Positions 5,976-13,466 of a DNA stretch of 22,182 nucleotides are shown here, one piece after another. Both the position numbers and the translations under genes were made by a program. Below the pieces are notes generated by a model. The model did not search any database and was not told the DNA's origin. It saw nothing but the letters and a program-made list of their open reading frames with translations. The stretch spans positions 113,158 to 135,339 of IMG/VR virus record IMGVR_UViG_3300048910_000190; one strand, 5' to 3'. This DNA is from a virus. Each line of letters opens with the position of its first letter. The stretch's first letter is position 1.

Positions 5976-6368
5976 CTACTCCCTGGTTCGCCTGGCCCGC
6001 TTCTGCAACTGCTGGACGAAGTTGGAGAACAGCTCCTGGTCGTCCGGGCTGATGCCGAGAGCCACGGCGGCCTCCTCGGGTGAGTAGACCTGCCGGGGCT
6101 GCTTCAGCTGTCCCAGGCTGTCGGCGGGGATGATCCCGGCGCCGATGAGGAGCTCCGCGACTGATACGCCAACCGCATCGGCGATGGGCTGGAAGTACTC
6201 AGGGCTGGGGATTGCCTTGCCATCCAGCCATCGGCTGACCGTGCTGCGGGAGACATCGCATGCTGCTGCCAGCGCGGCGCGGCCGCCGCCCTGGGGCTTG
6301 TCGATGTCGAGGTCGGCGCGGCGCATCGCCGCAGCCAGCCATGCCGCGAACTGCTCCGCCGCTGTCAT
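5976..6368 (-). CDS. XRE-family HTH repressor (CI-like)
   Basis: RAALAAACDVSRSTVSRWLDGKAIP...IADAVGVSVAELL; GAGGGA RBS before ATG 6368; divergent from Cro-like gene. Confidence 0.88.
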   Translation of the reverse strand: MTAAEQFAAWLAAAMRRADLDIDKPQGGGRAALAAACDVSRSTVSRWLDGKAIPSPEYFQPIADAVGVSVAELLIGAGIIPADSLGQLKQPRQVYSPEEAAVALGISPDDQELFSNFVQQLQKRARRTRE

Positions 6369-6426
6369 CTGGTCCCTCAATCCCCGTCGGTCGCACGCTT
6401 GCTCGCGCAGTGCCGTCAGTGGAAAT

Positions 6427-6550
6427 GGTTGCACATGCGCAACCCGGCTGGTCAAGGGCACTCCACGATTCTATGTGTGGAATGTGTTGCGCAGATGGAA
6501 CGCCCTGCGTAGTCTGTTCCGTGAAGGGAATTCGTCCCTTCCATGCAACA
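6427..6550. promoter_or_regulatory. CI/Cro switch region with five operator-like repeats TTSC-N6-GSAA
   Basis: Sites starting at 6429, 6469, 6487, 6517, 6535; first is GGTTGC-acatgc-GCAACC. Confidence 0.7.
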
Positions 6551-6560
6551 AGGGGGTGTC

Positions 6561-6788
6561 ATGTCCCATCGACTTCATGCCACGAACCTGCGCGAAGCCG
6601 CCGAGCGTTACGGCGACTTCAGCGACTACAGGATCTCCAAGCGGGCCGGCATCCCGCGCGCCACGCTCTCTCGACTCGTCAACGGCCAGGGCGAGCCCAC
6701 CATCACCACACTGATGCGCCTCGCCGCCTGCTACCGGATGACCGTCGAGTCGCTGGTCCGCGAGACGGAGACATCCGTGGCGGCCTGA
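6561..6788 (+). CDS. Cro-like XRE HTH protein
   Basis: YRISKRAGIPRATLSRLVNGQGEPTITTLMRLA; AAGGGGG RBS before ATG 6561. Confidence 0.88.
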   Translation: MSHRLHATNLREAAERYGDFSDYRISKRAGIPRATLSRLVNGQGEPTITTLMRLAACYRMTVESLVRETETSVAA

Positions 6789-7508: not shown

Positions 7509-8459
7509 TTGAGCATCATCCCGGCCTCGGAGCCCCCAGAGGGCGCCCGCGCGGCTGGAGGCGGCTACTGGTTCACGCCTCTGCCCGTGTACCTGGTCGA
7601 CGCGGCGTTCGACCCGTCGAGTCCGGTCAACGCACCCGCAGCCATGCTGTGGGCACACATCCACCGTCACTATGCCTGGCGGCGCCGGGTCTTCCCGTCG
7701 TACGCCACGCTGGCGCAAGAGACCTCCCAGAGCGAGAGTGCCGTGAAACGGCAGCTGACGGCCCTGAAGGCGGCCGGGGCGCTCACCTGGGGGGCCACCT
7801 ACGGGGCCAAGGGGCGCAGCAGCAACGAGTACGCGCTGGCCCCGATGAAGCCGTTCGACTTCGACCGCTCGGTGGAGGTCAAAAGTGAGCTGCACCCTCC
7901 GGTGGAGGTCAGAAATGACCTGGGGGTGGAGGTCAAAAATGACCCGAACCCCCAGGTCAGAAATGACCTAGGAGTAAAGAGCACAGAAGAAGTAAGAGCA
8001 TCTCTCTCTCCTCGCCTGCCCAAGCGGCCCAAGGAGCCTTCCGCCGCCACAGGCGAGAGAGAGACCACGGCTGCGCCGCACAACGACCAGACCGCCCCGA
8101 TCGTCGACGCCTGGCAGCAAGCCCGCGGCGGACGCCGCAACCCCGCAGCCGAGAAGCAGATCGCCGCAACCGCAGCCGAACTCCTCCTCGCCGGCTGGAC
8201 TATCGACGACCTCACCGCCCTCGCCGTCGACATGGCCGCCAAGTACCCCACCGGCCGGGACCTCACCCGCCACGCCGACCACTGGCAGCCACCCAAGACC
8301 GCCACACCAAAGCCCGGACCCGCCGCGGGCCTGCCTACGCCCTGCCAGACCTGCGAAGCCGCCCACCCAGCCGCGCGCTTCAACCCCCGCCTGCGCACCA
8401 CCACCAACGGCGAACCGTGCCCCAACTGCCACCCTGACGCCGCGCCCCTCGCGGCCTGA
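7509..8459 (+). CDS. Phage replication initiator (N-terminal winged HTH, lambda O/replisome-organizer-like layout)
   Basis: FPSYATLAQETSQSESAVKRQLTALKAAGAL...SNEY; internal iterons; C-terminal CxxC...CxxC; directly upstream of DnaB. Confidence 0.82.
   Translation: MSIIPASEPPEGARAAGGGYWFTPLPVYLVDAAFDPSSPVNAPAAMLWAHIHRHYAWRRRVFPSYATLAQETSQSESAVKRQLTALKAAGALTWGATYGAKGRSSNEYALAPMKPFDFDRSVEVKSELHPPVEVRNDLGVEVKNDPNPQVRNDLGVKSTEEVRASLSPRLPKRPKEPSAATGERETTAAPHNDQTAPIVDAWQQARGGRRNPAAEKQIAATAAELLLAGWTIDDLTALAVDMAAKYPTGRDLTRHADHWQPPKTATPKPGPAAGLPTPCQTCEAAHPAARFNPRLRTTTNGEPCPNCHPDAAPLAA
7871..8064. repeat. Putative replication origin: four iterons, purine-rich tract and inverted repeat inside the initiator gene
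   Basis: GGTCA-N4-TGA(C/G)C at 7877, 7907, 7931, 7955; A/G-rich 7971-8000; inverted repeat 8001-8018/8050-8064. Confidence 0.8.
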
Positions 8460-8476: not shown

Positions 8477-9850
8477 GTGACCCTGTTCGACGACGAACCC
8501 GACCCGCACGCCAAGCCCACCGGCGCCCCCGCCGACCGCACCCCGCCGCAGAACATCCCAGCCGAGCAGGCCGTCATCGGCGCGATGCTCCTCTCGAAGG
8601 ACGCCATCACCGAAGTCGCAGACATCCTCACCGCCGAGCACTACTACCGCGGCGCCCACCAACTGCTCCACCGGGTCATCCTCGACCTGTACCAGCGCGG
8701 AGAGCCCGCCGACCCCTTCACCGTCGCAAGCGCCCTCGACCCTGCTGAGCTTGCTCGCATCGGCGGCCGGAGCTACCTGCACGACTGCGTCAACGCGACG
8801 CCGACCGCGGCGAACGCCGGATACCACGCCAACATCGTCAAGGCCACCGCCACGCTCCGCGAGGTCATCGAGGCTGGCACGAAACTCGTCCAGTCCGGGT
8901 ACGCCGCCGCCAGCGACGACGCCGACGAGGTACTCGACCACGCCGCTTCCCTACTGCACAAGCTCACCACCGCCACGTCCAGCACCACTGCCGTCAGCCG
9001 CGAGAAGCCCCTCGACGAAGTCCTCGACAACACCATGGCCGCGTACTTCAACCCTGGCGACGGGTCGCTGCCGATCCCGTACGCCGACCTTGCGGAACTT
9101 GCGCCGGTCGAGAAGACCGACCTGGTCGTTGTGGCGGCCTCCCCGGGCATGGGCAAGACCACGGTCATGACGGACTGGGCGCGGTGTGTGTCGATCGCCA
9201 ACGACGGGCGGACGCTCATCGGAAGCATGGAGATGCCGCACACCCAGATCGGCCAGCGGATCATCTGCGCCGAGGCCGGCGTCAACCTGAAGCGGTTCCG
9301 CGCCCGCGTCCTGAACCGGGATGAGATGCAGCAGGTCGACGACGCGATCCAGCGGATTCACCTGAAGCGGTTGCGGGTTGACGACTCGCCGCGGGTGCCG
9401 GTGTCCCGGATGAAGACCCGGCTGCGTCAGCTGGAGGCCATCGGGGAGCTGCCGGACCTGTATGTCGTCGACTACTTGCAGATCGCGAAGGCGGAGGCCG
9501 AGGCGGGAGCGAGCCGTGTCACCCAGGTCGACAGCATCGCGGTCGGATTGAAGGAACTGGCGCAGGAGTTCCAGATCGTCGTGGTGGCCGCCGCCCAGTT
9601 GAACCGGCAGGTGGCGCAGCGGCCGGACAAGGTCCCGATGATGTCTGACCTGCGGGAGTCGGGCGGCATCGAGCAGAACGCCAATGTCGTGATCTTGCTC
9701 CATCGGGAGGACTACTACGAGAAGGAGTCCCCGCGCGCTGGTGAACTCGACCTGATTGTGGCGAAGAACCGCATGGGAACAACCGGCACCGCCACAGTGG
9801 CCTTCAAGGGGCACCTTGCCCATGCCTGCGACATGAACACCACCAACTAG
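8477..9850 (+). CDS. dnaB: Replicative DNA helicase (element-encoded DnaB)
   Basis: PPQN..AEQAVIGAML N-domain; ASPGMGKT, SMEM, VVDYLQ, AQLNR, SDLRESGGIEQ, AKNR motifs. Confidence 0.96.
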   Translation: MTLFDDEPDPHAKPTGAPADRTPPQNIPAEQAVIGAMLLSKDAITEVADILTAEHYYRGAHQLLHRVILDLYQRGEPADPFTVASALDPAELARIGGRSYLHDCVNATPTAANAGYHANIVKATATLREVIEAGTKLVQSGYAAASDDADEVLDHAASLLHKLTTATSSTTAVSREKPLDEVLDNTMAAYFNPGDGSLPIPYADLAELAPVEKTDLVVVAASPGMGKTTVMTDWARCVSIANDGRTLIGSMEMPHTQIGQRIICAEAGVNLKRFRARVLNRDEMQQVDDAIQRIHLKRLRVDDSPRVPVSRMKTRLRQLEAIGELPDLYVVDYLQIAKAEAEAGASRVTQVDSIAVGLKELAQEFQIVVVAAAQLNRQVAQRPDKVPMMSDLRESGGIEQNANVVILLHREDYYEKESPRAGELDLIVAKNRMGTTGTATVAFKGHLAHACDMNTTN

Positions 9851-9867
9851 CCCACAGGAGAACCCTC

Positions 9868-10623
9868 GTGAACGAGTCCCTTTCCACCCCCTGGCCCGAC
9901 CTCAACGCCCACATTGACCTCCACCCCGGCGCGCTGATCCTCCTCGCCGGGCCGGTCAGCTCCGGCACGTCGATGGCCGCACTCAACATCGCCACCCACA
10001 TCGGCTTCGACCTCGGCCACCGAGTACTCCTGTACTCCACCGAGATCAACCACCACGGCACGATGAGCCGCATCATCTCCGAGCGCCTCGGTATCGACAG
10101 CGCCAAGATGCACAACGGCGGCGCCACCGAGCAGGAGATGGCCCGCATCAAGGCGTACGGGCCGAAGATCGCCGACACTCTCGTCGAGATCTGGGAGGAC
10201 TCTCCGGTCAACATCCCGGCGATCCGGAAGAACCTGCAGAACCGCGCGTCCAGCGACAGGCCGACGCGCCTGGTGATGGTAGACGGCCTGGAGCTCGTGG
10301 CCATGGCCTCCCGCTGGAACTCCGAGGACGGAACGGGTCGCGGGCAGCAGCAGATCGTCGCGCTGCGAGACCTGGCGCGGGAGTTCGGTGTCACGATCGT
10401 CGCTACAGCTCACCTGTCGCGCCGGATCTCGTGGGAGCCGCAGGCTACCGATCTGGTGAGTGGCCTGGGTGAGGCGGCAGACACGGTGCTGCTGCTGCAC
10501 TCGCCGGCGGCTGACGAGGTCGTGGTGACGGTCGCGAAGAACCGTCAGGGCGAGTCCGGGGGACGTGTTCGCCTGTCGTGGCAGCCGGAGTTCACGCGCC
10601 TGCGGTCGTACGGCCAGGTCTGA
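9868..10623 (+). CDS. DnaB-like C-terminal-domain-only protein with degenerate Walker A
   Basis: STPWPDLN, AGPVSSGTS, STE, VDGLEL, LRDLAREFGV, ADTVLLLH, AKNRQG; AGGAG RBS. Confidence 0.85.
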   Translation: MNESLSTPWPDLNAHIDLHPGALILLAGPVSSGTSMAALNIATHIGFDLGHRVLLYSTEINHHGTMSRIISERLGIDSAKMHNGGATEQEMARIKAYGPKIADTLVEIWEDSPVNIPAIRKNLQNRASSDRPTRLVMVDGLELVAMASRWNSEDGTGRGQQQIVALRDLAREFGVTIVATAHLSRRISWEPQATDLVSGLGEAADTVLLLHSPAADEVVVTVAKNRQGESGGRVRLSWQPEFTRLRSYGQV

Positions 10624-10727: not shown

Positions 10728-10888
10728 CAGGGGTGAGCCCCCTCAGCCGGTGACGCTACCCCCGACGCGCACCGGGGTCTACATCTTCTGCTCCTCACCT
10801 GCGAGTTGAGCGCATTCCGACACGTCACGGGGGTACCCGCATACCCCCATATACGAGACAATTGACCGTAAATCCGGAGGTATCACCC

Positions 10889-11251
10889 ATGACCCTCACG
10901 CCCTCCCGCATCCAGCGCCGCCGCACGGCCGGCTGGCGCAAGCCCGACAACACCGTGATCGTCACCAGGCCCAGCAGGTTCGGGAACCCGTTCACCCTCA
11001 CCCTCGCCTACGACCTCGGCTTCGCCCGGCACGGCGACACCGAGACCGCCCGCGCCGCGTGCGTTGGCGCGTTCGAAGAGTGGATCCGCGGCAACCGCGA
11101 CATGTGGCGCTCCGAGAAGGGCGACCAGGCCCGTCAGCGGATCCTCGACGGACTGCCGGAGCTGCGCGGCAAGAACCTCGCCTGCTGGTGCCCGACCGAC
11201 GGGCCGTGCCACGCAGATGTCTTGATGCGTCTCGCGAGCCGGGAGGCCTGA
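10889..11251 (+). CDS. DUF4326 domain protein
   Basis: RIQRRR..GWRKP...RPSRFGNPF...LRGKNLACWC....CHADVL; GGAGG RBS. Confidence 0.85.
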   Translation: MTLTPSRIQRRRTAGWRKPDNTVIVTRPSRFGNPFTLTLAYDLGFARHGDTETARAACVGAFEEWIRGNRDMWRSEKGDQARQRILDGLPELRGKNLACWCPTDGPCHADVLMRLASREA

Positions 11252-12923: not shown

Positions 12924-13466
12924 TCACCGCCCCAGTGCCGCCCGCTCCTCTCGGTTCAGCACACCATCCCGCGCGGCAGCCCACCACAACGCCCAGACAC
13001 GCCGCCAATCAGTCCACGCCTCGTAGTCCACGAACACCGGCGGTGGCGGGCTCCCCTCCGGCAGCTCCCACAGCTGCTCCCCGTCCAGGCCCATGCCCTG
13101 CCTGTTGTGCCAGGGGAACTCCGCCCGGATCGCCGCCAGCTCGATCCTCTCCGCCTCGTGGCCGCCGCAGTCCAGCCACTCGATCACAGTTCGGGCGGTG
13201 TCAACCTCCGGCCACCACTCGGCCCTGTGGTGCTCCTTGAAACGGCGCTTCGGGTCCACGCTGATCCCGACGTACAGCAGGTAGCCGTCCGAGGTGAACA
13301 GCCGGTACAAGGCCGTCGGGCCGGCTTCGACGCGGGTGTTCCGTTCGGCGACTGCCGCCTGCCAGCACGGGTAGCAGCGGTCACCGGGCCACCGGCCGGG
13401 GGAGTGGCTGCCGCAGTCGGCGCACCGGCCGGCGCCGTGGGTGCCGAGCGTCACATCGTGGGTCAC
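12924..13466 (-). CDS. GIY-YIG nuclease family protein with N-terminal CxxC...CxxC
   Basis: TALYRLF....YLLYVGIS....RRFKEH...WW, conserved E and N (FPWHN). Confidence 0.85.
   Translation of the reverse strand: MTHDVTLGTHGAGRCADCGSHSPGRWPGDRCYPCWQAAVAERNTRVEAGPTALYRLFTSDGYLLYVGISVDPKRRFKEHHRAEWWPEVDTARTVIEWLDCGGHEAERIELAAIRAEFPWHNRQGMGLDGEQLWELPEGSPPPPVFVDYEAWTDWRRVWALWWAAARDGVLNREERAALGR

Follow-up and report, generated by a model that had tools for sequence, protein, structure and literature searches.

A lysine-less, collar-less DnaB motor-domain protein encoded directly behind dnaB in phages and plasmids of Streptomycetaceae

The subject of this work is a short gene that directly follows dnaB in a stretch of viral DNA of 22,182 nucleotides (hereafter the window, meaning the whole stretch that was analysed), which forms the last 22 kb of the 135,339-bp IMG/VR virus record IMGVR_UViG_3300048910_000190 (positions 113,158 to 135,339; G+C content about 69%). 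Judged from its sequence, the product of this gene, which we call the follower, is an ATPase-dead, collar-less protein made of the C-terminal domain (CTD) of DnaB. Its anatomy, its fold, the conserved loss of the Walker A lysine, its position in the operon and the repeated occurrence of a dnaB-follower pair were directly observed. The reading that we prefer, with a probability somewhat under one half (about 0.45), is that the follower would be a non-catalytic subunit mimic which binds the DnaB ring and helps to recruit, open or restrain DnaB at the origin of the element. The two genes and the diagnostic sites of the short one are as follows.

8477 to 9850, + strand: intact DnaB replicative helicase, 457 aa (PF00772, 104 bits; PF03796, 230 bits).
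9856 to 9860, + strand: AGGAG ribosome-binding site of the short gene, read from the sequence, 7 nt ahead of the GTG start.
9868 to 10623, + strand: short gene (follower, type A), 251 aa, GTG start, from the list of open reading frames (ORFs); PF03796 match only.
9949 to 9972, + strand: degenerate P-loop G28-P-V-S-S-G33-T34-S35 (G-x4-G-T-S; Walker A Lys replaced by Thr), from the alignment.
10537 to 10545, + strand: K224-N-R226 within AKNRQG, equivalent to the trans-acting Lys/Arg fingers of DnaB, from the alignment; K is invariant and R variable among relatives.

The window DnaB is complete, with its collar domain, linker and RecA-like domain and the motifs GMGKT, SMEM, VVDYLQ, QLNR, DLRESG and KNR. 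Its TAG stop is followed by 17 nt, which contain the AGGAG, and then by the GTG at 9868; no terminator-like site was found between the two genes. The ORFs, the PF00772 and PF03796 matches and the gap confirmed what the initial annotation had described, an intact DnaB followed after 17 nt by a 251-aa protein with only the RecA-like domain, encoded by an intact ORF with its own ribosome-binding site.

The short protein matches PF03796 alone, over nearly the whole profile (positions 4-254 of 255, E 2.8e-27). It also matches PHROG 243, 'DnaB-like replicative helicase' (1.9e-26, profile positions 16-266 of 273), and PHROG 19. The collar and the linker helix are absent: PF00772 gives no match, the protein starts with the first CTD motif (TPWPDLN), the Pfam match running from residue 7. 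Its identity to the adjacent DnaB is 26% across 246 residues. The states of the motifs were read from alignments of the short protein to the adjacent DnaB and to solved DnaBs, and these alignments upheld the losses first noticed by eye, together with the retained AKNRQG. The Walker A lysine is missing (GPVSSGTS), HLSR replaces QLNR, which places a His at the sensor position where DnaB has a Gln, and the DNA-binding loop DLRESG is deleted, leaving a 6-residue gap, in the short protein and in every member of its close family. The catalytic Glu (E59, in 'STE') and the Walker B Asp (D139) are retained. In DnaB, K-x-R provides the trans-acting Lys/Arg fingers.

On TIGR00665 the short protein scores 87.3 bits, below the NCBIfam equivalog cut-off of 385. 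Its AlphaFold2 (AF2) model (pLDDT 86, pTM 0.88) matches the DnaB C-terminal domains of V. cholerae, A. aeolicus, E. coli and G. stearothermophilus (TMq 0.80-0.85, E ~1e-18), with PDB 9dls, 4nmn and 4esv among the structures matched. By these tests of sequence the protein appears as a member of the DnaB_C superfamily that fails the defining tests of a DnaB helicase. With lysine, DNA loop, collar and linker all lost, followers are predicted to act only through binding.

The close family of the short protein is extremely small. Among 5.8 billion protein clusters, the only relatives that share words with it are P0002 (86% identity), P0003 (79%) and P0004 (65%), so that the family amounts to four singleton clusters. 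Each of the three is exactly 251 aa long and the alignment contains no indels. An exhaustive hidden Markov model (HMM) search of 1.84 billion representatives returned 26,425 DnaB-like proteins, only four of them beyond 1e-30: P0003, which is the family's own representative, P0005 (247 aa, 38% identical to the short protein), P0006 and P0007; the long protein P0011 matched at 5.5e-26. In the 153 proteins gathered by these first two protein searches (cluster search and HMM search), GK[ST] is missing only in eight, namely the close family, P0005, P0006, P0007 and P0011. The lysine is absent from all type A and fused relatives down to 33% identity and no close homologue carries GK[ST], so the Walker A loss seen in the window is a conserved one. 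Down to the same identity G28, S32, G33, S35, M36, L39 and N40 are invariant, as are E59, D139, H182 and K224. The finger, which the initial annotation presented as a kept feature, is complete in the window protein but is not conserved as such: its Arg is a Cys in P0002 and is absent from the long fused relatives and from type C (described below), and only the Lys is invariant among type A and fused proteins.

No type A relative besides the window record was found in IMG/VR, GTDB representative genomes or JGI metagenomes, which speaks of rarity there and not of absence, and in GenBank phages and PLSDB plasmids tblastn with the short protein hit nothing but ordinary DnaBs, none of them above 31% identity. 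Of the sequencing runs listed as holders, the four full ones are root metagenomes, perhaps the source sample itself, and no RNA run is listed. Aligned reads showed few variants in the short gene. In one soil-metagenome contig (run X5), position 9744 is joined to position 10802, as if it came from a relative without the short gene, a weak hint given that the shorter side spans only 39 letters.

Such rarity, together with the existence of related modules that have no short gene, is what one would expect of a functionless remnant of a DnaB-like gene, decaying or merely hitch-hiking. The frames are nevertheless intact, of identical length and without a single indel at 65-86% identity, codon bias is normal (G+C at third codon positions 0.89, like the neighbours), the substituted P-loop and other site residues do not vary among relatives as distant as 33% identity, and independent replicons carry lysine-less relatives at this same place in the gene order. 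Because the substituted loop is invariant, the frames are intact and codon bias is normal, these sequences argue for maintained function and not decay, with a degenerate P-loop that would be a retained surface rather than the result of drift. We regard the remnant explanation as barely credible; of the sporadic and decaying gene that the initial annotation had envisaged as a possible outcome, the rarity was found and the decay was not.

The follower pair is not confined to the window. When the long relative P0006 was used as query, a phage contig of 76 kb that is also in IMG/VR (L003) came up; in it, an intact DnaB is followed after 4 nt by a 247-aa ORF without Pfam match (ORF2) that equals the second domain of P0006. 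The family of this ORF aligns to the window family with an hhalign probability of 93% (E 3.4e-7), in register with the DnaB motifs, and the best matches of its AF2 model (pLDDT 72) are DnaB CTDs (E 3e-9). We call these proteins type C. In them AQRG[ST]REA stands where Walker A would be and VIERYERL where Walker B would be, with the Asp lost, and K-x-R is absent; they form 12 clusters and are also found on Streptomyces plasmids. A further form, type B, is encoded by plasmids of K. fiedleri, S. canus, NBC_01520 and NBC_00984; its Walker A position reads SRSREA or KGRREA, and the Walker B Asp and VAKDRSGP are retained. With matches of 60 and 66 bits to the two family HMMs, the K. fiedleri protein links types A and C. 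Searches of GenBank phages with type B and type C queries gave no match. PGAP labels type B a 'DnaB-like helicase C-terminal domain-containing protein' and type C a 'hypothetical protein'. The type B followers at L035:4159-5109, L036:4132-5112 and L037:4156-5112 are 316-326 aa long, with an N-terminal extension of ~110 aa that begins with Y-D-C-x-V-C, possibly a zinc ribbon, and is absent from the K. fiedleri form. On these sequence features we propose that followers constitute a group from Streptomycetaceae mobile elements, with types A, B and C; the traits of the group, a collar-less DnaB-CTD fold, loss of the Walker A Lys and an N-terminal TPWP[DE]L, were all found.

In three of the relatives, P0006 and P0011 (699-703 aa) and P0007 (484 aa), a type A and a type C dead DnaB domain are joined in one polypeptide. 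P0006 and P0011 add a C-terminal domain resembling T7 endonuclease I and Holliday-junction resolvases, with a Cys-rich tail (PHROG 9019, 21138). The architecture of these two fusions suggests that dead DnaB domains can serve as adaptor modules. It would also fit a follower that is an adaptor for some other transaction at forks or branched DNA (recombination-dependent replication, branch migration or resolution) and tethers a partner enzyme to DnaB or to the branched DNA, the more so as ATPase-inactive RecA-fold paralogues, such as the Rad51 paralogues, mediate recombination elsewhere. The stand-alone follower, however, has no nuclease, no recombinase or resolvase was recognised among the scanned genes just downstream, and the strongest recurring neighbour is dnaB, often accompanied by DciA or an initiator, and not recombination genes. 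We therefore hold such a role to be improbable.

The recurrence of the pair was examined in plasmids by a survey restricted to inspected records and not exhaustive. An intact dnaB has a follower gene immediately downstream of it on the same strand in the window (17 nt), in the phage L003 (4 nt) and in seven Streptomyces plasmids, those of S. virginiae, S. yangpuensis, S. caniferus, S. tubercidicus (the hit list gives two records, of which CP107743.1 was inspected), S. canus and NBC_01520. In the K. fiedleri plasmid one gene on the opposite strand stands between dnaB and follower. The plasmid DnaBs upstream of followers have an intact GK[ST], and all but that of S. tubercidicus have the R[DE]SG loop. 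In four of the follower-bearing plasmids dnaB comes directly after a DciA/DUF721 gene. The Streptomyces linear plasmids L027, L030 and L035 show a recurrent DUF6083 - DciA/DUF721 - dnaB - follower module, often with a CoiA-family gene nearby, and in S. virginiae and S. yangpuensis two DciA-family genes flank DUF6083. Because the position behind dnaB recurs, the followers are, as far as gene order can tell, functionally tied to DnaB. Their coexistence with DciA in four plasmids makes it unlikely that a follower alone loads the helicase in DciA-bearing replicons.

Five follower-bearing plasmids have no adjacent dnaB. For three of them, those of S. anulatus, S. scopuliridis and NBC_00984, no DnaB N-domain was found anywhere on the plasmid; DnaB_C matches are absent from the first two and are limited in NBC_00984 to its two follower copies. 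On the S. scopuliridis plasmid NZ_CP109092.1 the gene of a type C follower has a DciA gene immediately upstream (L033:2729-4229), and the two look like a loader-plus-follower pair that must act on the host DnaB. Since follower plasmids without dnaB must use the DnaB of the host, this distribution suggests a helper able to use whichever DnaB is present.

Other elements do without a follower. Six IMG/VR phages whose DnaB is 51-57% identical to that of the window have the same initiator-dnaB layout, and neither a second DnaB-like ORF nor a known loader was found in them. The follower is accordingly an accessory and not a core part, because these close relatives of the window DnaB go without one. 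Of the triplet of initiator, dnaB and DnaB_C gene that the initial annotation proposed to trace, the dnaB-follower pair recurs in L003 and the seven plasmids, and the six phages have no follower. In another high-G+C phage contig an IstB/DnaC-like ATPase gene overlaps the start of dnaB (L004:8793-10753); related phages therefore have at least three solutions to helicase loading.

These contexts also bear on whether the follower could be an inhibitor for host takeover, a dead CTD that mixes with or caps the host DnaB and stalls chromosomal forks while the phage uses its own DnaB. The short gene belongs to an early lytic operon behind cro, the phage brings a DnaB of its own and could afford to poison that of the host, the family profile scores other DnaBs above the adjacent one, and phage proteins that bind and inhibit DnaB exist (Ped1, PMC13728149). 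Against this, related followers are carried by stably maintained plasmids, and the three plasmids without DnaB depend on the host protein, so that a poison would block their own replication; the argument comes from types B and C and reaches type A by homology only. Immunity of the phage DnaB to such a poison, for its part, has no support. We consider an inhibitor unlikely, and a pure poison of host DnaB, like a permanent subunit of the ring, less likely than a helper. The initial annotation had read the protein as a pseudo-helicase assembling with DnaB as loader or ring opener, non-catalytic ring subunit or inhibitor of host DnaB. What stands of this is an intact, conserved, collar-less and predictedly ATPase-dead protein that is linked to dnaB in a second phage and seven plasmids; a sole loader is unlikely and a pure inhibitor is disfavoured.

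The same annotation had presented the two genes as a tandem DnaB, and this was not borne out. The close-family profile scores 80 bits on the adjacent DnaB vs 100-119 bits on other phage DnaBs. In a maximum-likelihood tree of 87 CTDs, 77 of which come from full-length DnaBs, the eight lysine-less proteins stand together on one side of a branch (SH-aLRT 99), where their neighbours are the collar-less pSAM1 protein (Walker A GRS) and P0053 (GKS), and all 77 full-length DnaBs, that of the window among them, stand on the other. A recent tandem duplication of the adjacent dnaB is ruled out by the profile scores and the tree split. Taken together, the scores and the split indicate that the short gene represents an old collar-less, lysine-less lineage that came to adjoin the window dnaB, and not a copy of its neighbour.

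Stand-alone DnaB_C-only proteins are encoded by three Streptomyces plasmids (L022, which is pSAM1, L038 and L039), with no adjacent dnaB in any of them. That of pSAM1 (L022:3992-4753) has GRS at Walker A, the Lys being replaced by Arg, and adjoins an initiator-like gene; no DnaB N-domain was found anywhere on this plasmid. Proteins of this kind were rejected as followers, as they stand alone without dnaB and fall outside the lysine-less clade, and would form a sister lineage to it, a placement based on the pSAM1 protein, the only one translated.

The genes around the pair in the window are those of a replication module with its regulators.

5976 to 6461, - strand: CI-like helix-turn-helix (HTH) repressor gene (HTH_3 4.7e-10, Phage_CI_repr 1.8e-3), divergent from the replication operon.
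6543 to 6788, + strand: Cro-like HTH gene, first in the rightward early operon (HTH_3 2.9e-8, HTH_26 8e-6).
7509 to 8459, + strand: replication initiator with a lambda O-like / DnaD-N-like winged helix (HTH_36 4.3e-7, DnaD_N 3e-3; PHROGs 270/391, 'replication initiation, O-like').
7876 to 7968, + strand: four iterons AGGTCA(G/A)AAATGACC inside the initiator gene (4 matches, all at this site, vs 0.01 expected; repeat family D1).
10862 to 11251, + strand: DUF4326 gene, next in the operon after the short gene (PF14216 1.3e-24; PHROG 464).

The final three iteron copies are 24 nt apart. The repeats are A+T-rich within surroundings of 69% G+C and partly palindromic. They probably constitute the phage origin, and their place within the initiator gene is likewise that of the lambda ori within gene O. 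Because the gene order and the iterons within the initiator match the lambda arrangement, the short gene is assigned to an early, theta-type replication operon. Across the whole 135-kb record no match was obtained for IstB/DnaC, DciA, Toprim_2, the DnaG zinc ribbon or Prim-Pol, in agreement with the earlier statement that the module holds no DnaC/IstB loader or primase, and DnaB_C matches are two only, the window dnaB and the short gene. A PADLOC search matched no known defence system. The closest homologue of the window DnaB (84% identity) is from Kitasatospora sp. NBC_01287, and most other homologues are from Streptomyces. Beyond the DUF4326 gene, a GIY-YIG-like nuclease gene (12924-13466) lies on the opposite strand.

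From these observations we infer DnaB binding, a wedge or adaptor mechanism and a step of action for the subunit mimic that we prefer. The follower would bind a ring of the DnaB family, that is the phage DnaB from the same operon and possibly the host DnaB, by docking as an extra, dead CTD on an exposed face of a DnaB subunit; in types A and B its K-x-R side could fill a DnaB ATP site. The lysine-less site and the missing linker would bar closure of the ring across the follower. Because it has no collar, linker helix, P-loop lysine or DNA-gripping loop, it could dock on the CTD face yet would not be locked into a translocating ring. It would work transiently at the iteron origin inside the initiator gene, where it may stabilise an open, loading-competent DnaB, tag DnaB for delivery to the complex of initiator and origin, or bridge DnaB to the iteron-bound initiator; alternatively, it may restrain DnaB until loading. 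The follower would in this way take the gene position and the role of lambda P, and would be displaced once DnaB encircles single-stranded DNA (ssDNA). Where a DciA-type ring opener is present, the follower would act alongside it and not in its stead.

Co-folding of DnaB (residues 165-457) with the follower gave a median ipSAE of 0.45 (0.45, 0.19, 0.61), the best of 3 controls reaching 0.00, a weak signal that may reflect likeness to solved DnaB rings. Contact agreement across runs was at least 66% and partner pLDDT at least 84. In calibration 58 of 80 solved complexes scored at or above the mark, as did 2 of 110 mismatched pairs; values of 0.60 or less held only 7 of the 80 solved complexes and both passing mismatches, so that a signal in this range is more often wrong than right.

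Several points weigh against the subunit-mimic reading. The co-fold signal is weak and may stem from the model's memory of solved DnaB rings. The DnaB relatives at 51-57% identity share the layout without a follower, which is thus dispensable for such a DnaB. Four follower plasmids encode DciA beside dnaB, so that a loader is already there. The type of follower tracks the DnaB lineage loosely: between S. virginiae and S. canus the DnaBs are 66% identical and the followers 31%. Across nine non-independent pairs, too few for weight, the two identities correlate with r = 0.61, which speaks neither for nor against co-evolution. The gene context of type A rests on one member, that of the window itself. 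Finally, a mechanism based on the finger cannot hold for the whole group, because type C has neither K-x-R nor the Walker B Asp.

A more specific form of this reading is tentative and, in our view, doubtful. It takes the follower as a dead 'seventh subunit', one of a hitherto unrecognised class of accessory factors of Streptomycetaceae phages and plasmids derived from the motor domain of the helicase itself. The follower would dock through its finger side on an exposed CTD face of DnaB, keep the ring open or connect it with the complex of initiator and origin, and come off after DnaB has been placed on DNA. Much less plausible still is a follower that stays as a permanent non-catalytic subunit of a mixed DnaB/follower ring translocating as a working helicase. 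The K-x-R kept in types A and B could complete the ATP site of a neighbour, and the tight spacing in one operon permits joint expression. Such a subunit would nonetheless have neither the linker helix and collar by which DnaB subunits are locked to one another nor the RESG ssDNA-binding loop, and would break the DNA staircase of the ring, as deduced from DnaB-ssDNA structures such as 4ESV, which the model matches. The Arg of the finger is moreover lost in P0002 and type C, and close relatives of the window DnaB work without a follower.

Outside the E. coli and Bacillus models, the recruitment and opening of replicative helicases are still under study, and DciA is to our knowledge the only known such factor in Actinomycetota. 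A conserved protein with a predictedly ATPase-dead DnaB motor domain, encoded behind dnaB in several independent Streptomyces phages and plasmids, sometimes beside DciA and sometimes on elements without a dnaB of their own, is a candidate for an additional recruitment component. The dnaB-follower pair is recurrent, apparently undescribed and directly testable, since the system is small, with two or three genes and an iteron origin, and open to pull-down, ATPase and loading assays. If our reading is true, the follower would be the first pseudo-enzyme partner reported for a superfamily 4 (SF4) helicase, as far as the literature was searched. A true 'seventh subunit' would be a further way of loading or recruiting the helicase, the third after the AAA+ loaders and DciA and distinct from lambda P; an inhibitor would instead represent subunit mimicry against the host replisome.

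Among known proteins the follower is closest to the DnaB CTD itself (PF03796), with which it shares the fold, a full-length profile match, the catalytic Glu, the Walker B Asp, a residue at the sensor position and the Lys/Arg finger motif. DnaB has a collar, a linker, the Walker A Lys and the RESG loop, whereas all four are absent from the follower, in which the Lys has become a Thr. The follower resembles lambda P, the AAA+ loaders DnaC/DnaI and DciA in its gene position after initiator and helicase, as in a lambdoid-style module. These proteins bind the CTD tier of DnaB and control the state of the ring or its delivery, a role that is only proposed for the follower; they have no relation to it in sequence or fold, and PF01695 and PF05258 are absent from the protein and from the record. 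DciA in particular is a separate gene beside dnaB in four follower plasmids, where the follower could at most be a co-factor.

Rad51 paralogues and the clamp-loader subunits delta/delta' are non-catalytic paralogues that assemble with active ATPases. They share with the proposed follower the logic of a degenerate partner with an NTPase fold, although the protein families differ. We know of no non-catalytic paralogue partner for SF4/DnaB helicases, and a full-text literature search turned up no paper describing a DnaB-domain protein that is ATPase-dead and partners DnaB. A report on a retron-associated DnaB_C protein (PMC13712802) was set aside, as it concerns Bacteroidota defence loci unrelated to followers.

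Two further phage systems offer a comparison. Actinophage DnaB-like proteins that have only the RecA core (PHROG 243) are, like the follower (1.9e-26), single-domain and collar-less. For one of them, Wildcat gp80 (mycobacteriophage clade), the RecA core has been reported to be active as helicase and ATPase (Bhowmik & Das Gupta 2015, PMC4523182). The follower, by contrast, has neither P-loop lysine nor DNA loop, and it is found next to a complete DnaB, not in place of one. Ped1 of the Pseudomonas phage PaoP5 is a 9.5-kDa nuclease that binds the DnaB hexamer and inhibits the host DnaB (PMC13728149). It is likewise a phage protein that alters DnaB activity, but it is a nuclease unrelated to DnaB, whereas the follower is derived from the helicase.

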